Shown: positions 4,635-49,690 of the stretch, piece after piece
Numbering within the stretch: position 1 is the first letter of the stretch
Layout of the letters: each line of letters starts with the position of its first letter
IMG/VR virus record: IMGVR_UViG_3300047476_000597
Location: 1 to 64,000 of that record
DNA: 64,000 nucleotides
From: a virus
Direction: 5' to 3' (one strand)
The notes under the pieces: model-generated
The model's input: the letters and a program-made list of their open reading frames with translations, nothing else
Database searches by the model: none
Told to the model about the DNA's origin: nothing
Translations under genes and position numbers: made by a program

Positions 4635-5729
4635 AGTTTTATTGTTTTACCTAGTTCTGTTAATATACACATATGCTCTGTGTTTATTGTAAAAACACCT
4701 TTATTCAGTAGTGCTTTAGCTGTTGTTGTTCTGATGTATTTACTAGTACCCATAAAAACAAAATAATCACCATCACTGACATATCTCATCGGGTAATCTT
4801 TCATCATACTTAGTAGCTCTCTTTGTGTCTCACTTAGTTTTATTATCTTCATTGTTTAGCATATTTATTACATAGTTTACATCTTCATCCTGTCTAAGAT
4901 CTTCTAGTGCTTCTTGTATTTCTGTAGCTGTTATATCTCTATACCTCAACACTCTAGCTGTGGTTATTATACTATCTATTAGCCCTATAGTTATTCCTGT
5001 TTCTGATCTGCAATCAGTTGTTGTCATCAGTTTTCTTTTTTAATTTTTCTAGTAGCATTTTATTTATTTCCATTATCTGATCATAATCTTTTCTTACATA
5101 CCTTTCTCCTTGTTGAAAACCCATACTAAACACGCTTTCTACTATCATTTTTATCATTGGCTCGTCTGATCCATTACCATGATTATTAAACTCCCACGAC
5201 TCTTCATTGATTTTTTCTTTGAGTGGTATACAGTCTGAACCTTTCATTATATCAGCTCCTTTGTATTTATTATACCACTTTACTTTTTGTTTAATGTCAT
5301 GAGTTTTTTTGATGAGTTTTACTACATCATCTATTACTTTACTTACATCTTGCAGTTTGTATTTGTCTTTTTCTTTTATCTTCATACCGACAATATTTTT
5401 ATCTGTCCTTTTAACCCTGCTATTTCTTTTTGTAGTTCTTTTATTCTGTGCTCTAGTAACCCTCTTCCTCTGTTGCTCTCTTCGTATTTTTTTCTGCTTA
5501 TGTAGTGCTCTGTTATTTCTTGTTTCTTTTTACTTATACTCACCAGTGTTATTCTTACTGGTGGTTCATTCCTCATAGCCTCTAGCTCTTTTCTGAGTTC
5601 TTTATTGTCTAGTTCCTGTTGTAGCAGCTGTTGATTAGTTTTCTTCTTTTCTTCCCGGCAGTTATGCAGTAACACTTTCAGCTCACTATTATCTTCCGAT
5701 AACCTCTTTATCTGTTCATCTATTGTCAT
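4631..5729 (-). other. Four hypothetical CDS (4631..4852, 4830..5027, 5014..5385, 5382..5729)
   Basis: ORF track, overlapping junctions. Confidence 0.65.
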
Positions 5730-14562: not shown

Positions 14563-16565
14563 TGTTCTTCTTTTTGTAGTTCATAATAATAATCTCTAAT
14601 ATTTGCATATGCCTCTAGTATCCGCTGTTCTCTACCTTCTTTAATATCTGTTACTAGTTCTGCAACTGTCGGCTTACCTTGATCGTCTGTAGCTGTTATT
14701 ATATACAGCTGTGTCTTTTCTTCAAACAGGTTCTGTTGATTACCAGTTGTTACAGATATTATGGTACCTATCTTATACTCTAGAGCAGGATTATTACACA
14801 ACAGCTGCAGGGATTCTCCTGTCAGGGTACTGGTGGTATTTTCTGTTATAACACTTTGATTGTCAGCTGGTTGTAGGATTTCCTTGTCGCATTTATCTAC
14901 TATATTTGCGACAGTTAAACCAGCTTGACTGAATGTTACCTCGTCTTCTACCCATCTACTACTAGTTATTAGCTTTTCTGGTATTCCCACTAGCTGTTGC
15001 ATTTGTTCTAATAGAGTATCTTCTTTCTCATCTGTATAAACAGAACCTTCTACAGGCATTTTGTATGAATGACCAGTGTCTGACTTGTCAAAACCTGTTT
15101 CTTTTAGTTTCTCACTCCACGAATCTCCTTTTGGATAATAGCTAGGATCACTCATAACATTCTCATCGTAGCAGTTACTGCAAAACAACTCACTACCAAA
15201 CATTCCTACTCCACAGCTAATACATGTGCCTGTAATATCTTCAGATTTTTCAGTACTAACAGCTGTCTCTTCTATCTTAGGGATTGTAGCTACTATGATG
15301 TGGGCTTTTATCCAAGGGTCTACTATGTCTTCAGTTGTATCCCATGGAGCTGGTTCGTCTATTATATCACTCTCACCAGAGGTATCTAACCATTTCTTAC
15401 TCAGACCATAGCGTTGATTAAAATCCCTACGCAATATATCAGCAAACGGCTCCTTTATCTCATCTATAGGACCATCCCACCATGTTTCTACAGCTGGTTT
15501 ACCATATTGATTTTTGCCTGGTTTTACTGATGTAGCTACTGTTATATTCTTATCTGGGTTATCTGTCTTGTGTATGCTATTTATATAGCTATTTATTGCT
15601 ACTTTTATTCCTTGTATATCTTGTACACTACTCTCACACAACAGCTGCTCTTCTTCTGACATATCTGCCTCTGTCTTATCGAATCTTCTACGTACTACAA
15701 GAAAATGGCTAGGTGCCTCAGTATTAGCAGACTCTTTCATCAGATTATCCGGCATCACTGTAAGAGAGATAAAATCGCAGTTACTGAATAAATACTTTCT
15801 AGCTGTTCTATTAGTAGGAGTATCTAGAAATGCATTAGTTACCAGATATGCTAACAGACCACCATGGTTGAGTTTACTAATACCTTTGGCAAAAAAATAG
15901 TTATGTACCTTGCCTGTGAGATTCTTGTCTGCTATTGTTGGATCAAACACTGGGAATGAACCATATGGTGGATTAGTAGCTACAAGATCATACTGACCAT
16001 CTTCACTCTTATCAGATTCTTCAAAACCTTTATTGTGCACTGTATAACGACTCTTAGCTGGTAGTGTACTCATGACACATTCTAACACCTTGCTAGTCAG
16101 CATATCCTTCTCATACATAGTAACCTTCTGTAGATTCTCTATATTCTGAATAGCTGACAGAGCAAAAACACCACCACCAGCTGCAGGGTCGTATACTGTT
16201 TTTATATCAGCATATTCTTGTACTATCTCCATGAATGTATCAACCACTACAGCTGGTGTGTAATATGCATCTAGTACTGCTGCTTTTATTGATGCTACTA
16301 CTTCTTTGTACGCTTTTTCACTCAGTTTATCCTGTAACAGATCATGCAGCTGTTGTATTACTGGTCGTAGTTGTTTATCTCCTTCTGCTACTGTTATCCA
16401 CTCTTGATCGTTGTATGGATTGTACAACAGTGCTTTTACAAACCCCCAACCTTTAAAAGATAACATAGTTTCTACTTCCTCTTCAGAAAGAGTCAAACCT
16501 TCGTGCCATTTAAAAACTGCTCTTATTGCTTCTATATTATTTTGTAGTGCTTGTTTCTGATTCAT
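14559..16565 (-). CDS. Amino-DNA methyltransferase (N6A/N4C), N-terminal part of a DarB-like protein
   Basis: AYYTP, motif I YDPAAGGGVF, motif IV TNPPYG, HNYFFAKG..GGLLAY; acidic linker with CxxC..CxxC. Confidence 0.88.
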   Translation of the reverse strand: MNQKQALQNNIEAIRAVFKWHEGLTLSEEEVETMLSFKGWGFVKALLYNPYNDQEWITVAEGDKQLRPVIQQLHDLLQDKLSEKAYKEVVASIKAAVLDAYYTPAVVVDTFMEIVQEYADIKTVYDPAAGGGVFALSAIQNIENLQKVTMYEKDMLTSKVLECVMSTLPAKSRYTVHNKGFEESDKSEDGQYDLVATNPPYGSFPVFDPTIADKNLTGKVHNYFFAKGISKLNHGGLLAYLVTNAFLDTPTNRTARKYLFSNCDFISLTVMPDNLMKESANTEAPSHFLVVRRRFDKTEADMSEEEQLLCESSVQDIQGIKVAINSYINSIHKTDNPDKNITVATSVKPGKNQYGKPAVETWWDGPIDEIKEPFADILRRDFNQRYGLSKKWLDTSGESDIIDEPAPWDTTEDIVDPWIKAHIIVATIPKIEETAVSTEKSEDITGTCISCGVGMFGSELFCSNCYDENVMSDPSYYPKGDSWSEKLKETGFDKSDTGHSYKMPVEGSVYTDEKEDTLLEQMQQLVGIPEKLITSSRWVEDEVTFSQAGLTVANIVDKCDKEILQPADNQSVITENTTSTLTGESLQLLCNNPALEYKIGTIISVTTGNQQNLFEEKTQLYIITATDDQGKPTVAELVTDIKEGREQRILEAYANIRDYYYELQKEEQ

Positions 16566-21127: not shown

Positions 21128-21841
21128 GTGTTGTTAGTTTTTTATCTAGTTCTTCACATTCCTCTAGTAGCTTGTATACTGAGTGTTTTTCATGCTGTGG
21201 ATAATTTTTTAACATTGCTGATAACCACCAGTGCAGCTTACCTACCAGCTGTCTCATTTCAGGAGCTGCTGCACAGAGTTTAGCATTTTTCTCTGCTTGT
21301 TGTTCCCCTACATCAAAGGTATCTAATACATTAGTAGTACATAGGTTTTCGTCTTTTGGGTCTGTTGCACTTATTATCCAGTATTCTTTGCAGTATTTCT
21401 CAGCATACCATTTGTTATTCTGTTCCATGTTACAGCTTTTCTAGATGACTAATACTCACACATCCTGATATACCTTCTACATTACATACTGGATGTTGTA
21501 CTCCTACATACCATACAGCTGATGTTATGGTGGTGTCTGTTGGGCCATATCGTTCTCCTGTTGGTGTTATTACTGACCAGTATCTTACTGGTGTACCTGG
21601 TATTATTTCTTGTTCTTTCATGCTGTTATTAGTTTTCTAGCCATGTTTTTAGTTCTGGTATTGTTCTAGTTTCCAAGGCTTCCCACACAAGGTCGTATAT
21701 AGTTCCTTGGTAGTTTCCTTCATCTTCTTTGAGCATTGTTACTATTGCTTGTATTAGCTCTCCTTTTATAGTAGCTGACATCTCTTCTGATACTTTTTTG
21801 TGATACTCTTTATATGCAGATTGTTTACCTATATTCTTCAT
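21120..21841 (-). other. Three small hypothetical CDS (21120..21428 with NAKLCAAAPEM motif, 21430..21621, 21629..21841)
   Basis: ORF track. Confidence 0.65.
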
Positions 21842-21869
21842 ATATTATTTTTTTACTATGTTACTAGAT

Positions 21870-22200
21870 ATGGTGAGGTTTTCCTGACAAGACCTTTCCT
21901 TTTTTACTAGGAGTATCTTACACAGGACCTGAGAGGAGATTATATAGAGTATCCTCTCTGCATCAGTAGCTACCTCAGTCTAACAGTTCACCACGCTGTC
22001 TTTCCTGAATCTCGAGGGAATGTGGTATTAGCAGTTTCTTGTCAGCCCTGTTGTCACCTTCAGACAGAGCAGGTATTTATGCCACATTCATGCTTCTTCC
22101 TGTGTCCAAGCTGTTCCTTACGGGGACCACTGCAACTACACAGGCTTTCTGGTACTACTGTGTTTATTGATTTATCAGTTATACTCTGTTTCTGACTGTG
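21870..22200 (-). ncRNA. Candidate large structured non-coding RNA (or RNA-primed origin)
   Basis: ORF-free gap, GC-richer than flanks; nested complementary blocks 21964-21974/22151-22160, 22018-22025/22082-22089, 21884-21892/22037-22045. Confidence 0.5.
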
Positions 22201-22217
22201 GGGGACAATAACAGTAA

Positions 22218-22341
22218 TAAGAAAACCCCAACCAATGAAACCGTGGAAAGGTTTGGTCGGGGCATCTTATTTCCCTTACTTTTATTATTAGTTTATGATT
22301 GTCAGGACTACTTTCCACGGTTTCTTGACACAACAAAGATA
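22218..22341 (-). promoter_or_regulatory. Promoter (-7 TATCTTTG) plus kissing-loop leader ending in a terminator-like hairpin
   Basis: -7 box 22334-22341; 14-nt perfect complement 22311-22324/22237-22250, the latter in the loop of CCCCGACCAA/UUGGUUGGGG followed by UUUUCUU. Confidence 0.7.
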
Positions 22342-22395
22342 CTATTTTACTGTTGTTTCCTAATAGATATTTTCTATAGATTACCTGTAGCTGGT

Positions 22396-23127
22396 CTATA
22401 GATCAACCAGTTGTACTTTTTCTGTCTTCTTAGCTCTGTAGTTGTATATCTCTTGTATGAGTGCTAGATACTGTACTACATTAGCACATTTCACCAGCTT
22501 GCGTGATTGGTATGTCATCTTCTCATTAAAGAATATATCGAATATGAACGATGGATTTTTGATAGCCCTCATCATAGCATAACAGAAACTACGGTCTTTA
22601 TAGAACGGCACATACTGACTCATCTTTACTATCTTACTGGCTATATCTTCTGCTTCTAGGATATTATCAGCAACGAACTGACCTCTAGAGAACTTGTCCT
22701 GTTGTTCTTTTATATTACCACTACCAGTGAGTAGGAATAGATTGGTTGTGGTACCTAGTCCGTACTTCTCTTTGAACTGCTTATATACTACATATTCCCT
22801 ATTACCAGTTGCTATGTAGCTGGTTATATAGTCTTTGTGGTCCCACGGTCTGTTATGAGTATTCAGTGCTTGTACATCTTCGATTTTAGCTCCTTTTACT
22901 ACGTAGTAATATATAGGCTTACCCATCTTAGAAAGAGCTGTAAAACGATGCTGACCATCTATTATCTCCATTTTCTCATTAACCTGTATAGGAGACACAG
23001 CCATGTACTCAGACATTGTTTTTATCAACCTGTTTACATGCAGCTGGTCTACTACTCTATTGCCACCTATTATTGAGAACTTCTTATAGTCGGTTGTTTT
23101 CTCTATTGTCATTCCTGTTGTACTCAT
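22396..23127 (-). CDS. ParB/Srx-like N-terminal domain protein
   Basis: GNRVV..HVNRL..SPIQVN..IIDGQHRFTA. Confidence 0.8.
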   Translation of the reverse strand: MSTTGMTIEKTTDYKKFSIIGGNRVVDQLHVNRLIKTMSEYMAVSPIQVNEKMEIIDGQHRFTALSKMGKPIYYYVVKGAKIEDVQALNTHNRPWDHKDYITSYIATGNREYVVYKQFKEKYGLGTTTNLFLLTGSGNIKEQQDKFSRGQFVADNILEAEDIASKIVKMSQYVPFYKDRSFCYAMMRAIKNPSFIFDIFFNEKMTYQSRKLVKCANVVQYLALIQEIYNYRAKKTEKVQLVDL

Positions 23128-23141
23128 TGTTTAGTTTTTTA

Positions 23142-23699
23142 TTAGTTATCAAACCACATTACTACTCTTACATCTGCTGGTTCTCCCAGTGTTTTTAATA
23201 TTTCTATCTCATTAAAGAACCACTCACCTAAAAACTCCCTGATAGTAGTCTGTTTCCCTTTTCCTTCTTCTGCTATAGCTGCTCCATTAAAAACATTAGG
23301 GCTTTCCTCTTTTGTATACCTACGGTCTTCAAAAACACGATCATAGTCATACTCTATTAGTTCTTTTAGAGTCACATTGTTAAAAGAGTGATAGTTACCA
23401 TCATTGAATAGTTCTTGTTTTACTGATTCTTCATAGTCTCCCATACCAGAAAAGTAGCTGGTTACTTTATTTAGATACTCACTGTCTTCTGGTAGTCCCC
23501 TAGTTTCTCCTGTTATACACTCTATATGACTGTAGTTTCTTACATCAGCAAGAAAACCAAAAATGCCATACGACCTTATACTAAAAGGCTTCGATGTATT
23601 ATTCCATGTAGCTGTACCTGGATCGAATATTTCTTCTGTTACTCGTTCCCACCTATTGTTTATTTTTCTCTCTGCAAAAGCATGTATATCAGCTCCCAT
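23142..23699 (-). CDS. Conserved hypothetical phage protein (MGxDIH...VxWFDN family)
   Basis: MGADIH, RSYGIFGFLADVRN, RGLPED, YHS..TLKEL, VRVVMWFDN. Confidence 0.75.
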   Translation of the reverse strand: MGADIHAFAERKINNRWERVTEEIFDPGTATWNNTSKPFSIRSYGIFGFLADVRNYSHIECITGETRGLPEDSEYLNKVTSYFSGMGDYEESVKQELFNDGNYHSFNNVTLKELIEYDYDRVFEDRRYTKEESPNVFNGAAIAEEGKGKQTTIREFLGEWFFNEIEILKTLGEPADVRVVMWFDN

Positions 23700-23735: not shown

Positions 23736-24458
23736 TTATTTGTATCTCCATTTAAATCCTCCAGCAGTTTTATAGTTTTTTACTTTTTTACATACTTTTG
23801 CTATAGCATGTGCTGTTGTAGGTAAAAATAAACTAGCTTCTTTAGCACTTTTCCATTCTTTTATTATGTTTTCTTTTTCATCTAGTTGTAATACAGCTAT
23901 AGACCTATGATCCATCTTTTTTCTATTTTCAGGATTAGATAGATATTTTCTTTTAGCTTCTGACATTTTTCTACGTCTTTCTGGAGAAAAATAGTAACCT
24001 ATTTCTGCCTTAGTTTTTAGAGTTTTTTCTATTTCTTCTTTACTTCTTTTATATCCTTTTAGGCCTTTAGATATATTTTCTTTATGTTTTTCTGTTATTA
24101 TTTGTTTACTTCTAGCTGCTTTTATTTTATTTATAGATTCTGTTGCTTGTTTTATGATACCTCTTTCACCAGTAGGTGATATATTGTAACCGCAGCTTCT
24201 ATTATGTGCATTGTATATTTTAGCCCAATAGTGTTCTCTTTCTTTCAGTTTTTCTATTTCACATATTTCTATTCTTTCAAACTTAAAAGATTTTTCACCA
24301 TATTTATTCCAAGCTCCTTGAAGATGTTGATTTACGTGTCTATTACATTTTAACTTTTTTCTATGCCCATCAAACCATCTTCTAGTAAAACTATTAGCAT
24401 AGCCAATATATACCTTGCCATTTATTTTGTTTATAATACAATATATACCTGTTTCCAT
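23736..24458 (-). CDS. Free-standing GIY-YIG homing endonuclease with NUMOD-type DNA-binding repeats
   Basis: TGIYCIINKINGKVYIG, LQGAWNKYGE, GYNI, RRKMSEAK, KTAGGFKWRY. Confidence 0.9.
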   Translation of the reverse strand: METGIYCIINKINGKVYIGYANSFTRRWFDGHRKKLKCNRHVNQHLQGAWNKYGEKSFKFERIEICEIEKLKEREHYWAKIYNAHNRSCGYNISPTGERGIIKQATESINKIKAARSKQIITEKHKENISKGLKGYKRSKEEIEKTLKTKAEIGYYFSPERRRKMSEAKRKYLSNPENRKKMDHRSIAVLQLDEKENIIKEWKSAKEASLFLPTTAHAIAKVCKKVKNYKTAGGFKWRYK

Positions 24459-24460
24459 AA

Positions 24461-24556
24461 AATAAGAATCCTTTAAAGGTTCACAGCGGCAACTGATCCC
24501 CTTTAAAGGATTGATAATGTTTTTAATAGTTGTTGCCGCAACTTAATGCGAATATA
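24461..24556 (-). promoter_or_regulatory. Promoter (-7 variant TATATTCG) plus kissing-loop leader of the GIY-YIG gene
   Basis: GCGGCAAC in hairpin 1 is complementary to GUUGCCGC in the loop of a 13-bp stem (24467-24479/24500-24512). Confidence 0.65.
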
Positions 24557-26385: not shown

Positions 26386-28113
26386 TTATACTTTATGTTC
26401 TGATATATCCTCTATCTCTGCTTCCCATTTGTAACAATCTTCTTCTCTTGTATTGTCTTGTAACCAGCTAAACAAACCATCTTTATCAAGCCCACCCATC
26501 TGTATAGTACCAGATTCTTCAGCTGTTTTTAACAGTGCTTTGTATATACTCTTAGGCATTTTTATATCTCCATACCCTATTGTATATGTTACCTTAACCT
26601 GCAGGTCTTTTACTACTATTGTCTTTTTCTTTGCCATGTTGTTGTTTTTAAAACTCACTAATCACACATATCATTCCACTTTCGTCAGCACCTAGATGCT
26701 TCTGTGCCCACTGTATTGCTTCTTCTTTTGTTTTAAACGTTGCTAGATTAGTCCACTCACCGGATTCTATTCTGTTTACATGTGGTATATCTACTGCAAA
26801 AGAGTCTTCATTGTTATCATCGTAGTCGTACTCTGTACTGTTTGTTATCTCACTCATTGTTTTAGTTTTATTAGAGTACCATCATTCATTGCTTTTCTTA
26901 TCCAGCGCATATATGTTATAGCTTTATCTTCTGATAACAGGGTTGCATTACCTATATCTTCTACAGGTACTGGAAACTGGTATATGTCATATTCAGTATT
27001 CCATTCTTCTACTTCTTCTGAGCCTACAGATATTACTGGAACATCTCTTTCATTTGTCATTACATTGTAATAGAATATACCAGCTCTGTAGCTGTCGAAT
27101 ATTACTATGTTGTCTTTTACTAGTTCTTTTATTGTTGGTGCCATTGTCTTTATTTTATACTGTTTATATAACCTTGTATTGCTTTCTCGTATATCATAGA
27201 CTGTATTCTGTTCCAATCTGCTTCTATCTCTGAGTTTTCTATATTTCCCTTGTAGTCTTCTACTAACAGCTGATAAGCACTGTCTCCTTCTTCATATTCT
27301 CCTGTCACTAGTTTGTACAGATCTTGCTCATTTGCTATCCAGCTACATGAGTAATAGTCAGGATAGTACTGTTCCACGAATGACCACACATCTTGTTTAT
27401 GTTCTAACATTGGTAGCTGTTTATTGCATTTATAATATCTGCTAGACTGATAGTTTCTGTAAAGAACTCCTCTCCAGTGTGCTTACCTAGTCCGGTCCAG
27501 TTTACATGATTCTCTCCATAGAACCTTATAGTATGTCCTTCTACTGTTTGTTCTGGTATATGAGTAAGATGTTCATCATTTTCCTCTATTTCTACGAATG
27601 CCCAACCTTGTTTTGGTAGCTGTTCTGCAATATTCATTTCTTGCCATTCTTCATCTACACCAGTTAGATCAAGAAACTCCACTTTATGAGTAAGAATCTC
27701 TATGGACAACATATTAGAATACTCATCTTTTAATAGATTAGCTTTTCTATTCAGGTTTCTCCACACATGATGATGTTCGTTTGCTATATTATCTATAGTT
27801 ACTAGAGCACAATCTGACGAATCCCACTCACTATTTGTATGAGCCCGTACTAGTATATACTCTGTTGGTTTTTGTGATATTCTCATGAGTTTTTCTTTAT
27901 TAGTTCAACAACTTCTTCATCACTCATATTCCACTCATTTTCTGATAGATAGAAATAGACTAAACTATCTATATCTTCTGCTCTTTCATCTCCTTGTGCT
28001 AGACCTATTAGTATCTCATCTTCTAGGCCTTTTGTACTGACAAATACTCTAACATCATCTTGTATTTCTACCTGTTTATAAGGATACTTCTCTCCTTTAT
28101 ACGTTAGTTCCAT
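26386..28113 (-). other. Six hypothetical CDS (26386..26658, 26648..26857, 26854..27216, 27150..27410, 27404..27886, 27883..28113)
   Basis: ORF track; 27404..27886 (KPTEYIL..TNSEWD..GKHTGEEF) resembles a Bacteroidetes ICE hypothetical family from memory. Confidence 0.65.
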
Positions 28114-40100: not shown

Positions 40101-42311
40101 CTAATGATTCCAATATGTTGTTAATACTCCTTCTGCGTCCATCTTTACTTTACTACAGTACATCTGAGCTCCTACTTTCATTAGAGTTTCTATCAGCTGT
40201 CTGCCTTGTTCTCCGTACTCTTCTTTTACTTCTGCAAGACTCTCATCGTGTATTAGGTTAATGAGCCATATCTTATCACGTAGATTATTCTCTATTTGAT
40301 ATTTTCTGAACAGAACACCAAACGTCTTAGTTTGACTACCGGCCTGGCCCTGAATACGGTAATTTTGGGCGCACCTTTTGAGGGATCCTTCTATTATTGC
40401 ATACAGTTTTACTAGATTACTGAACCCTGGGTGTTTATTCTCAGCCTCTTCTTTAGCTGCTTGTTTATCATGGTATTTCATATTTTGGTAGTTACTAGGC
40501 AATATTTCCGCTATTTTATTTTTAGCTTCTAGCATACGTTCATAGTCCGGTTCCCAGTATCTTCTACCAGTTATTGAATCTATATCTATGTATCCATGCT
40601 CCAGTGCTTCTCTATGACTGTCATCAAAATACTGTTTGAGGCCAGGAAAGGCTTCTAGGTAGCTGTCTATAAACTTCTGAGCAGTATCTTTATCCACATT
40701 AAGATCATCTTTTAATGTGAATGCGCTTCCACCATATATAATCTTGAATGACAAACTCTTAGCATCATTACGTTCTTTTGGGTGTGTACTCTTACTAATG
40801 AGTAGATTAGGGTCACTACGCAGTACTCTGAATAGTTTAGTAGCTGTCATACTGTGATAGTCTTTACCATGAATAGGATCTCCTTCATTAAAAAACCGTA
40901 ACATAGTAGGGTCTCCAGATACATCAGCTACTATTCGAGCTTCTTGTGATGAATAGTCACAATTTACTATTTTACAACCAGCTGCAGCTGTAAAGGCTTT
41001 TCTGTAATCAGAATCTGAAGGTACGTTTTGAAGATTTGGCCCCCTAGAACTCATCCTTCCCGTATTAAGAATTTGCTTATATGATGTGTGTACACGGCCT
41101 GTTATAGGGTGTATATATTTCAACCAGTCTTTACCGAATGTAGTTACACACTGTTCTGATACCTTGAATAACAGATAGTTGAGTATTAGATCTTTCTCTT
41201 CTACGATGTCTGTCTCTTTATCATCATTGTATCGTTCTTTATACGGCCCATCTAGTAGCTTAGTAAGACTCTTAGCACCAGCTGTATACTCCATTTTGCC
41301 TGTCTGTTTACTCTTTTCCATAGGACAGAATCCTAGGTGCCGAAACAGCTCAATAACCTGCTTACTACTGGTCCATTGTATGCTACATGTATACTCAGCT
41401 CGGAACATATCAGGGGGTGCACAGAATGACCTATGATTAGCTACTACCCAGTCATCTAGTTTCTTCTTACGATGATTGTATATCAGTAGATTCTTCTCAT
41501 AGGTACGTAGCCATTGCTCTTTATCAAACTCCATACCCTTCAGTTCTATATCAGCCAGCACTAAACAGAACTCATTCTCTAGCTGGTGTACAACAACCGG
41601 ATTATACCCTCTAAAACCCTTCAGCTGTTTATCTCTGATATACAGAGGATAGATGATGTCATCAGCACCATATAGTATCTGAGATTCTGTGAATGGAGTA
41701 TCTCTGATTGTCAGGAACCCTTTACGTATTCTCTTATCTATATACAGCTGTTCAGTATCTTCTTCTCCTGTATCTTCTGTGAATAGGTCTCTCTCTTGTA
41801 CAGCTGCAACACCTAGGTATCTGTTAGCCATTGCTTCCAGAGAATAGCTGAATCCTTTCGGGTTGGTTTTACTCTTACCTAGGCCGTTTGTAAGATTTTG
41901 CTCTACTAACATGACGTCCCATATATACCAGAATAGAATACCGTAGTTGTGTAATAGATGTTTAGCCTCGAACCGAATATTAGCACCTACCCACAACCGG
42001 CTCTTATCAGAAAACAGAGGTTTCAATGGTTCTATATCAACAGTACGAGTGTCTATAACATAGACACGTTCTTTAGTGCCTATCTGGAGCATGACCACAG
42101 CTGACAGGTATGGGTCTAGTCCTGGCTGATACACATTTTCATTACGGTATGTATTCAGTCTATAACGTCTTGTAGTTTCAATATCAATCGCCAGTATACT
42201 ATGTTGAGAACAGTACTCATAACACTCATCTATTGTTGCATATACTATCTTCCTAGAGTACTGTTCATTCTTAGGACCAATGAACCTAATCTCTGCTTCT
42301 GGTATTTTCAT
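40101..42311 (-). CDS. polA: Family A DNA polymerase with 3'-5' exonuclease domain
   Basis: AIDIETT, YGADD, TGRMSS..PNLQNVP, motif A DYSSQEAR, motif B RNDAKSLSFKIIYG, NYRIQG, motif C IHDE. Confidence 0.95.
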   Translation of the reverse strand: MKIPEAEIRFIGPKNEQYSRKIVYATIDECYEYCSQHSILAIDIETTRRYRLNTYRNENVYQPGLDPYLSAVVMLQIGTKERVYVIDTRTVDIEPLKPLFSDKSRLWVGANIRFEAKHLLHNYGILFWYIWDVMLVEQNLTNGLGKSKTNPKGFSYSLEAMANRYLGVAAVQERDLFTEDTGEEDTEQLYIDKRIRKGFLTIRDTPFTESQILYGADDIIYPLYIRDKQLKGFRGYNPVVVHQLENEFCLVLADIELKGMEFDKEQWLRTYEKNLLIYNHRKKKLDDWVVANHRSFCAPPDMFRAEYTCSIQWTSSKQVIELFRHLGFCPMEKSKQTGKMEYTAGAKSLTKLLDGPYKERYNDDKETDIVEEKDLILNYLLFKVSEQCVTTFGKDWLKYIHPITGRVHTSYKQILNTGRMSSRGPNLQNVPSDSDYRKAFTAAAGCKIVNCDYSSQEARIVADVSGDPTMLRFFNEGDPIHGKDYHSMTATKLFRVLRSDPNLLISKSTHPKERNDAKSLSFKIIYGGSAFTLKDDLNVDKDTAQKFIDSYLEAFPGLKQYFDDSHREALEHGYIDIDSITGRRYWEPDYERMLEAKNKIAEILPSNYQNMKYHDKQAAKEEAENKHPGFSNLVKLYAIIEGSLKRCAQNYRIQGQAGSQTKTFGVLFRKYQIENNLRDKIWLINLIHDESLAEVKEEYGEQGRQLIETLMKVGAQMYCSKVKMDAEGVLTTYWNH

Positions 42312-49075: not shown

Positions 49076-49142
49076 AGTTTGTCGGCATACGTTTGTCAGG
49101 AGACAACACTCATGTATACCTGTATAGCCATGGCAGCTATTG

Positions 49143-49519
49143 TGGAACCGACGGGAGTCGAACCCGTGTCCAAACGATTTTCCTCTCAAAAAAGTTACGA
49201 CTATGACTTGTTTTTACTCTGCTGTCTTCAGAGATGCTTGTGTAGCTGTTATGTTATTCGGACAACTGCTACTGTACTTTTCCTTCCCTGTGAGTTATAC
49301 ACTCAGGTATGTGTTTTGAATTAGGCTGCTACTGCAAACTCACCATACATTACTGGAGCATTTGCAAAAGCAAGATTAATTAGTCTTGCACCTTCTTCTT
49401 GACGAGCAACTTTTTTGTTGTTTGCATCTATTGTTTGAATCTATTTATTTAAAGGACTACATCCTTGTCCTTAGTCGCCTTTTCTACTATACTAGTCGCT
49501 GTCAAAACCAAACGGCCCC
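49143..49519 (-). ncRNA. ssrA: tmRNA
   Basis: 5' GGGGCCG..TTTGACAG, 3' T-arm GGGTTCGACTCCC and CGGTTCCA; G3.U70 alanine identity; tag ORF 49321..49425 after ATAGAT ending FAVAA-stop. Confidence 0.93.
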
Positions 49520-49545: not shown

Positions 49546-49553
49546 CAAAGATA
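49546..49553 (-). promoter_or_regulatory. Bacteroidetes-type -7 promoter box for the tmRNA
   Basis: TATCTTTG about 27 nt upstream of the mature 5' end. Confidence 0.65.
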
Positions 49554-49690
49554 CGCTAATTCCTGTAGCTGTCACAATATATACCATTTCATACAGCTGA
49601 TCATCTTCTGAGAATGGTATCAGGTAGCTGTCTATGTTGTATATGCACCAGATATTAAGGTATCTTTGTTTAGTTGTCATATTGTTTATA

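Follow-up and report, generated by a model that had tools for sequence, protein, structure and literature searches.

The leaders of the trp, pyr and bgl/sac operons and the expression platforms of riboswitches are classical examples of transcription attenuation, and RNA-based immunity is found in the phages P4 and P1/P7. Transcription attenuators governed by antisense RNA are outlined for plasmids of the pT181 type (PMC3753616, PMC4878617). Here, we analysed 64,000 nucleotides of viral DNA (the window), which constitute the first 64 kb of the IMG/VR record IMGVR_UViG_3300047476_000597 (133,627 bp, rated 100% complete), and focused on a gap of 554 nt without open reading frames (ORFs) at positions 21842-22395. 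The minus strand carries almost all of the likely genes (long ORFs) between 1 and ~56 kb. The gap separates two of them: a ParB-like gene, whose stop is at 22396, and an ORF of 70 amino acids (ORF70) that begins at 21841. A model that saw only the letters and a list of their ORFs (the original prediction) had reported a gap of about 550 nt in this gene-packed region, and the gap is indeed there. Our best reading is that it is a transcription-control region and not one large folded RNA: a promoter-proximal attenuator with readthrough as its default, behind which the ORF70-ThyX-Dcd operon has a long conserved leader. We assign this explanation a probability of about 0.5.

Only one relative with the DNA of the gap was found, in scans of IMG/VR with DNA patterns: an 18.7-kb fragment of a related phage (G002). 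A blastn search with positions 21600-22600 gave no match in the GenBank phage collection, DNA patterns tolerant of purine and pyrimidine exchanges had 0 matches in metagenome contigs, and DNA patterns had 0 matches in GTDB genome contigs. None of 28 loci with relatives of the ParB-like gene carries DNA similar to the gap, and at the two closest of them (L002, L029) no gap follows the gene. The same is true of a 134-kb relative (G001, ParB 51% identical), whose whole record gave a best E-value of 0.12. Among the five loci with PolA relatives, G002 alone is close. The collection of homologues proposed with the original prediction therefore stands at one relative, with no further ones for testing covariation.

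The two phages are syntenic yet mosaic, with many insertions and deletions; the median identity of 100-nt windows is 80%, their polymerase genes are ~84% identical and the coding neighbours of the gap 74-91%. Within the gap, three parts differ sharply in conservation. In the first (22324-22395) all 72 of 72 aligned bases are identical to G002, the second (22235-22323, 89 nt) has 67% identity and a length difference of 10 nt, and the third (21842-22234) has 98.7% identity, with five transitions in 393 nt. The longest exact run of the whole 18.7-kb comparison (179 nt, 22025-22203) lies in this third part, the core, and four of the six longest exact runs shared across the 18.7 kb fall in the gap. 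High identity extends into ORF70 through codon 33 and drops sharply at codon 33/34.

The variable second part, with the last base of the first and the bases just downstream, holds the elements of the proposed switch:

22311..22324, minus strand: arm A of the putative antiterminator helix, GAAACCGUGGAAAG, one side of a 14-bp perfect inverted repeat at the predicted 5' end of the transcript
22299..22305, minus strand: CUGACAA box 3' of arm A, kept within an otherwise scrambled segment
22253..22262, minus strand: 5' arm of the terminator hairpin (hairpin T), CCCCGACCAA; a G-U pair here is A-U in G002
22237..22250, minus strand: arm A', CUUUCCACGGUUUC, which occupies 14 of the 17 bases in the loop of hairpin T
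22226..22235 and 22216..22225, minus strand: 3' arm of hairpin T, UUGGUUGGGG, and U-tract, UUUUCUUAUU, identical in G002

Hairpin T is GC-rich, with a 10-bp stem (22262-22253/22235-22226), a 17-nt loop and the tail UUUUCUUAUU. It is the hairpin that had been predicted at 22226-22262, and it does carry a U-rich tail. Other terminators of this phage have the same form of a hairpin followed by a T-tract. A stricter terminator scan, which covered loops of 3-8 nt, listed none in the gap; the loop of hairpin T has 17 nt. In G002 all 10 pairs of the stem are kept, three of them with one-sided changes.

The second helix, A/A' (22324-22311/22250-22237), was absent from the list of helices in the original prediction. 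Its 14 bp make it the longest helix of the whole gap, compared to a maximum of 11 bp in 60 shuffles, and the gap contains 8 perfect helices of at least 8 bp against 2.1 +/- 1.5 in the shuffles, 0 of 60 reaching 8. Folding energies agree as to where the structure lies. The leader 22329-22215 has a z-score of -2.66 (0 of 200 shuffles as good) and the whole gap one of -2.04 (3 of 100). Among 16 sliding 120-nt windows of the minus strand (60 shuffles each), z is -2 or lower in only four, all within 22360-22151, with a minimum of -5.02.

In G002 the counterpart of A/A' is a 15-bp helix in the same place with different arm sequences. Anchored on GAAAG/CUUUC, the comparison gives seven pairs that are the same, six with double changes, one with a one-sided change and none broken (counts from a script run on each sequence, not from alignment folding). 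Moreover, the wobble pairs (a G-U in hairpin T of the window and a G-U in A/A' of G002) can pair on the minus strand only and thus suggest an RNA with the same sense as the genes.

When extended, the A/A' helix also captures 3-4 bases at the start of hairpin T's 3' arm, and the two folds are thus mutually exclusive. For an RNA ending at this 3' arm, as it would with the polymerase on the U-tract, A/A' and T have energies of -27.4 and -21.6 kcal/mol in the window and -29.2 and -24.0 kcal/mol in G002. In both phages A/A' is therefore ahead by 5-6 kcal/mol at the point where termination would be decided, and the pair probabilities at that RNA end are 0.99 for A/A' vs 0.00 for T. With the U-tract included, the two states come within 0.7 kcal/mol of each other in both phages, and the released RNA slightly prefers T. 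A/A' would form before T and has the lower energy when termination is decided, so that readthrough is the predicted default.

The RNA would start in the fully conserved part of the gap, which contains the following elements:

22324..22395, minus strand: fully conserved 5' block, read as the promoter region, 72/72 bases as in G002
22384..22393, minus strand: CAGCTACAGG
22373..22380, minus strand: palindrome TCTATAGA
22334..22341, minus strand: Bacteroidota-type -7 box TATCTTTG, which fits TAnnTTTG

TAnnTTTG is given as the -7 consensus of the primary sigma factor of Bacteroidota in PMC7366714, as outlined there. The identical ten bases TATCTTTGTT are also present upstream of the phage transfer-messenger RNA (tmRNA) gene, at 49553, and another match to the consensus, TACCTTTG, stands ahead of a free-standing HNH gene. 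Between 1 and 57 kb the minus strand has 16 matches, three of them intergenic (in the gap and upstream of the tmRNA and HNH genes). From the position of the box we infer a transcription start near 22329-22326. Identity to G002 collapses exactly 2-5 nt after this predicted start, where arm A begins. No sigma-70-like site was listed inside the gap; one was listed downstream of it (21629-21602).

Two side observations concern the words around these boxes. The word CAGCTACAG is over-represented on both strands, inside and outside genes, with 23 copies in this genome vs 0.55 expected, 7 vs 0.62 in G001 and 2 vs 0.07 in G002; example sites in the window are 22384-22393(-), 49562-49571(-), 4921-4930(-) and 14686-14695(-). 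CAGCTAC has 115 copies vs 9.6 expected. With up to one mismatch, CAGCTACAGG has 26 matches in the window vs 3.4 +/- 2.0 in shuffles, and both exact 10-mers lie upstream of the two TATCTTTG boxes. The CAGCTACAG word looks like a lineage-specific DNA signal. The tmRNA gene (49140-49519, minus strand; Rfam 88.7 bits; ARAGORN tag peptide ARQEEGARLINLAFANAPVMYGEFAVAA) is flanked by the TATCTTTG -7 box starting at 49553 upstream and by a hairpin with a T-tract (49075-49043) downstream.

Put together, these parts suggest the following course of events. A host-type promoter resembling those of sigma-ABfr, located in the first 72 nt, would start the RNA at ~22329-22326. Its first ~105 nt would form a two-state switch in which arm A pairs with arm A' in the terminator loop, and the next ~375 nt would be the long 5' leader conserved in sequence. 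With A/A' formed, the terminator would be blocked and transcription would read through into ORF70, ORF63, ORF102, ThyX and the dCTP deaminase gene. If arm A were otherwise occupied, hairpin T would form and transcription would stop at ~22222, giving an RNA of ~105 nt.

Such a switch resembles classical attenuators in that a hairpin with a U-tract competes with a mutually exclusive upstream helix, both are promoter-proximal and ahead of a metabolic operon, and the folds are close in energy. Unlike in those leaders, the antiterminator draws its 3' arm mostly from the loop of the terminator (14 of the 17 loop bases) and otherwise from 3-4 bases of the terminator's 3' arm, not from its 5' arm. Additionally, there is no conserved leader peptide, and no conserved domain resembling an aptamer precedes the switch; conserved sequence comes after the terminator instead. 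As far as the pT181-type attenuators are outlined in the sources cited above, the likeness to them and to the immunity systems of P4 and P1/P7 lies in RNA pairing that would decide whether a leader terminator forms, and in paired segments that differ by matched changes while the structure and the flanks are kept. Within the same limits, the locus differs from these systems in that the partner lies in cis, no host-type promoter for a counter-transcript was found, and the downstream genes belong to nucleotide metabolism instead of replication or an antirepressor. Rfam gave no match to c4 RNA or RNAI in the gap.

Several points weigh against this explanation. The covariation of A/A' is a single comparison of two sequences, and an inverted pair of protein-binding DNA sites would co-vary likewise. 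RNAalifold, applied to a MAFFT alignment, recovers hairpin T only; A/A' is missed, as this alignment shifts the A arms by one column. A terminator masked by default needs a trigger. No candidate for a factor occupying arm A emerged from the genome, where neither arm recurs a third time (matches of 12 nt or longer), or from the gap, whose plus strand has no TAnnTTTG site for a counter-transcript. TAnnTTTG is only weakly enriched between genes (3 of 16 matches in ~7% of the sequence) and the -33 element is poor (TTAG instead of TTTG), which is why we treat the promoter as putative. The Bacteroidota-type host is itself one that we infer, from the similarity of the phage PolA (28-32% identical to the polymerases of Bacteroides crAss-like phages and of one cyanophage) and from gene starts that, in the gaps inspected, have A-rich stretches 5' and no Shine-Dalgarno motifs. 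Finally, a leader of ~390 nt that is 98.7% conserved without detectable structure is left unexplained.

The switch parts could also belong to a stand-alone small RNA (sRNA) gene of ~105-118 nt. Its A', exposed in a loop of 17-20 nt, would act in trans, for example on arm A of a nascent leader, and promote termination; the fast-changing A/A' would then be a specificity determinant that prevents cross-regulation among related co-infecting phages. A promoter-like box followed by an intrinsic terminator is the layout of canonical intergenic Bacteroides sRNAs as PMC7366714 outlines them, and by its sequence the locus would have both a promoter and an intrinsic terminator of its own, with a TAnnTTTG-type -7 box ~105-118 nt upstream of the terminator. 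In the slightly favoured T state of the released RNA A' would be exposed, and it is the only complement to A in the genome. Half of the helix positions differ between the phages, and the flanks are 99-100% identical. However, the 5-6 kcal/mol lead of A/A' at the decision point means that few terminated RNAs would be expected without another factor, and 67% identity is within range of the least conserved coding parts (74-75%), so that drift with compensation may suffice. The locus also departs from the canonical sRNAs of that source in a body poorly conserved save for CUGACAA and in a terminator predicted to be masked by default. Taken together, we consider an sRNA gene unlikely.

Returning to the attenuator, we surveyed hairpins with loops of at least 10 nt and a T-tract as a control (12 in this genome, 11 in G001). 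A complement of the loop lies upstream for only two of them, hairpin T (14 nt) and a hairpin at 24510 (8 nt). A general design of terminators with loop complements in this phage group was rejected, as there is only one second case, which is weaker and whose alternative fold is 14 kcal/mol worse. This second hairpin (24468-24511, minus strand; 12-bp stem, 20-nt loop, T-tract) abuts the start of a GIY-YIG homing-endonuclease gene (23736-24458), and the 8-nt complement of its loop lies 29 nt upstream. It is probably a plain terminator or insulator, because the hairpin state is computed to be 14 kcal/mol more stable than the alternative.

Other accounts of the variable part were tried and dropped. 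An invertible segment does not fit: the variable parts align in the forward direction (score 20.5, reverse -14, shuffles -2.5 +/- 4.7), so they are homologous in forward orientation and do not form an inverted cassette. A 28-codon ORF (MPRPNL..., 22265-22179) was rejected as a leader peptide, having no ATG in G002. The CUGACAA box recurs at 22045-22039, and its complement, UUGUCAG, is found 45 nt ahead of the start of ORF70 (21890-21884); 3 of the 22 copies in the genome (both strands) lie in the gap. These positions may reflect an RNA contact over a long range or a binding site present in several copies. The terminator region is 82% complementary to 21883-21899 over 17 nt; a long-range pairing of the terminator with this segment was discarded, as it is weakened by the changes in G002 (read from the alignment, not computed).

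Downstream of the switch lies the conserved core, to which the original prediction had assigned a large, densely base-paired RNA:

21842..22215, minus strand: conserved non-coding core, interpreted as a long 5' leader for the operon that follows, holding the multi-branch stems of the original prediction
22151..22160 and 21964..21974, minus strand: predicted outer stem CAGUAGUACC/GGUAGCUACUG, complementary segments present
22138..22144 and 22099..22105, minus strand: predicted stem CCUGUGU/ACACAGG, segments present
22082..22089 and 22018..22025, minus strand: predicted stem GAAUGUGG/CCACAUUC, segments present
21952..21958 and 21931..21937, minus strand: predicted stem GAGAGGA/UCCUCUC, segments present
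Minus strand: further predicted pairs CUGACAAGA/UCUUGUCAG, UCCUGACAA/UUGUCAGGA and UCCUGUGU/ACACAGGA, segments present

All the complementary segments listed in the original prediction are thus found on the minus strand. A new large structured non-coding RNA (ncRNA) of ~200-390 nt would also agree with the lack of coding capacity in six frames and of any Pfam or PHROG match, and with a core that is the highest-identity stretch in the shared 18.7 kb. There is, furthermore, a mild excess of perfect helices of at least 8 bp (3 vs 0.9 +/- 0.9; 4 of 60 shuffles reach 3). The folding energy, however, is no better than that of dinucleotide shuffles. The multi-branch domain (21960-22165, 206 nt) has a z-score of -0.03 on the minus strand, with 95 of 200 shuffles as good, and folds better on the plus strand (z -1.89). 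Eight windows over the domain (22240-22121 to 22030-21911) have z-scores from -1.27 to +1.59; the value of -1.27 belongs to window 22240-22121, and the other seven range from -0.35 to +1.59.

The five substitutions in G002 do not help the folded-RNA interpretation either. C22024 to U turns a G-C into a G-U pair in the GAAUGUGG/CCACAUUC stem, which would fit a conserved structure, and C22204 to U, upstream of the listed stems, turns a predicted C-G pair into U-G. U22008 to C, on the other hand, disrupts a predicted pair, and with G21921 to A the UCCUGUGU helix proposed as a competitor becomes weaker. G22011 to A falls on a base unpaired in the fold of the window. With only these five changes the minimum-energy fold of G002 drops the outer stem, so the predicted fold is not kept. 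Five substitutions in 393 nt, seen in the single homologue available, lend no support to covariation in the core.

An Rfam search, also proposed with the original prediction, did not place the gap in any family. At the gathering threshold Rfam 15 recognised only the tmRNA (49140-49519) in the window, and at E-values up to 10 the best hits were 18 bits for the gap and 20 bits for its copy in G002, vs a cut-off of 47. No tRNA or tmRNA gene was found within the gap, in agreement with the earlier statement that tRNA signatures are absent. A large structured ncRNA thus appears very unlikely to us. What stands of the attenuator-gated large RNA is the gate, a terminator with a competing helix kept through six double changes, and this is the best-supported part of the earlier interpretation; the large folded RNA behind it is not supported.

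We also looked for remnants of coding sequence in the core. All six frames carry stops of mixed kinds, and read-through translations of six frames, with X at stops, gave a best E-value of 0.08 against Pfam and PHROG. A decayed protein gene was therefore rejected for lack of residual Pfam or PHROG similarity, and stop-codon reassignment was ruled out because the frames mix TAA, TAG and TGA. Among the small ORFs, a 53-codon one starting with TTG is not kept in G002, a plus-strand one of 57 amino acids loses its GTG there and has no homologue, and a plus-strand one of 43 amino acids matches only three long repetitive proteins. The core was likewise discarded as the template of a diversity-generating retroelement, as its matches elsewhere in the 133.6-kb genome do not exceed 17 nt. 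Two short words from the region of the 5' arm of the outer stem, a 17-mer (ACACAGTAGTACCAGAA) and a 15-mer, recur at genome positions 92607-92623 (minus strand) and 115058-115072 (plus strand), inside two coding regions, one of them a 4565-codon ORF (109828-123522); these recurrences are probably due to chance, because their flanks do not match.

The conservation of the core is real, and it has two possible causes, selection or recombination. If the latter holds, the gap would contain a terminator only, at an ordinary operon boundary, and the identity of the core would come from a recent patch of recombination or gene conversion between mosaic phages. The mosaic nature of the pair with its many indels fits such a patch, as do exact runs of 92-99 nt without synonymous change inside a coding sequence (27404-27886), the failure of the core to fold better than shuffles, and the edge of the high-identity block, which reaches into ORF70 and stops at codon 33/34 as abruptly as at a breakpoint. 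A single patch, however, cannot hold the 67%-identical island of 89 nt in its middle, and two events or additional selection would be needed. Within the conserved block, moreover, the core is changed at 5 of 393 sites, compared to changes at 3 of the ~19 synonymous sites that codons 2-33 of ORF70 offer (Fisher p 0.004, from small numbers), and the concentration of four of the six longest exact runs in the gap also speaks against a patch. We regard a terminator with such a patch as rather unlikely. Since the core is the most conserved stretch common to both phages, it likely has some function at the nucleotide level.

The coding sequence just mentioned deserves a remark of its own. On the minus strand at 27404-27886, stretches of 90-99 nt unchanged relative to G002 flank 14 changed codons (within codons 72-88; 13 of the changes are non-synonymous). 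This patchiness is a sign of small-scale mosaic exchange or of uneven constraint.

Another explanation is that the region is a replication origin. The original prediction had suggested a primer for the phage PolA similar to ColE1 RNA II, in which case the leader transcript would prime synthesis and its variable 5' part would be the target of copy control. With ~490 nt between the predicted start and ORF70, the non-coding transcript would be several hundred nt long, as in ColE1, and the phage encodes a PolA. The variable 5' ~100 nt between a fixed promoter and a fixed downstream part recalls the incompatibility regions of ColE1-type plasmids, and conservation at the nucleotide level without RNA structure would be in keeping with an origin. 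Nevertheless, no defining part of the RNA II/RNA I system was found. The plus strand has no host-type promoter for a counter-transcript (TAnnTTTG, 21700-22500; promoters of other types were outside the scan), and Rfam gave no RNAI or RNAII-like match. Iterons and tandem repeats are absent from the gap, in which direct repeats reach at most 17 nt in two copies, and no replication initiator gene was recognised next to it. The GC skew keeps the same sign across 1-56 kb and turns near 56-58 kb instead of at 22 kb, which is weak evidence, as skew follows gene direction. We consider a primer of this type extremely unlikely.

It is also conceivable, if doubtful, that this lineage has a new functional element acting at the nucleotide level, made up of the core and codons 1-33 of ORF70. 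A self-complementary leader would gate access to it, with A/A' as a "lock" that diverges from one related phage to another. The element might then act in cis as a DNA site, or its RNA might function despite having no stable fold, for instance as a processed regulatory RNA or as a platform for binding. The diversifying lock, like antisense incompatibility determinants, would let each phage regulate only its own copy.

If the attenuator explanation is true, the gap contains a compact, protein-independent switch in the operon leader of a Bacteroidota-type phage. To our knowledge, regulation in such phages is almost unmapped. A narrow search of the literature on ncRNAs, promoters, terminators and transcriptomes of crAss-like phages gave no such element by title or abstract. 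An antiterminator arm inside the terminator loop would be an unusual layout, and the two natural alleles offer a ready-made orthogonal pair for tests of RNA specificity. The ~390 nearly invariant non-coding bases are a real puzzle, being the best-conserved DNA of both phages with no known match and no fold. As the lineage consists of two records, its wider importance is limited for now.

The genes on either side of the gap are as follows:

22396..23127, minus strand: ParB-like/DUF262-like protein gene, 243 amino acids (PHROG 12305, E 5.7e-27; Pfam GmrSD_N, E 4.7e-5, below the cut-off)
21629..21841, minus strand: ORF70, 70 codons, first gene downstream of the gap, no assigned function

ORF70 is followed by ORF63, ORF102, ThyX, another ORF102, the dCTP deaminase gene (Dcd) and a UDG-like gene; the operon content of ORF63, ORF102, ThyX and Dcd is also present downstream in G002. 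The original prediction had stressed that the element lies directly downstream of the ParB-like gene. The position is right, and a tie to that gene is not supported: G002 lacks the gene and retains the whole gap, which means that the element is not an appendage of it. The absence is a clean one (window 22399-23034 vs L036 1933-1951). The first ~20-30 codons of the ParB-like gene remain in G002, fused in frame to the conserved 5' block to give a 56-codon ORF (L036 1858-2028).

Further upstream, the gene preceding the gap in G002 (L041 4052-4597, minus strand; window 23142-23699, minus strand) has a weak match to Nmad5, nucleotide modification associated domain 5 (E 6e-5, below the cut-off). Together with ThyX, Dcd, the UDG-like gene and genes for a DarB-like methylase/helicase, it suggests a cluster for DNA or nucleotide modification. 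As for the polymerase, the PolA match in G002 spans ~3.1 kb (L044 55-3175) vs 2.2 kb in the window (40101-42311), which suggests an insertion (an intein, an intron or an endonuclease gene) in the polymerase gene of G002.

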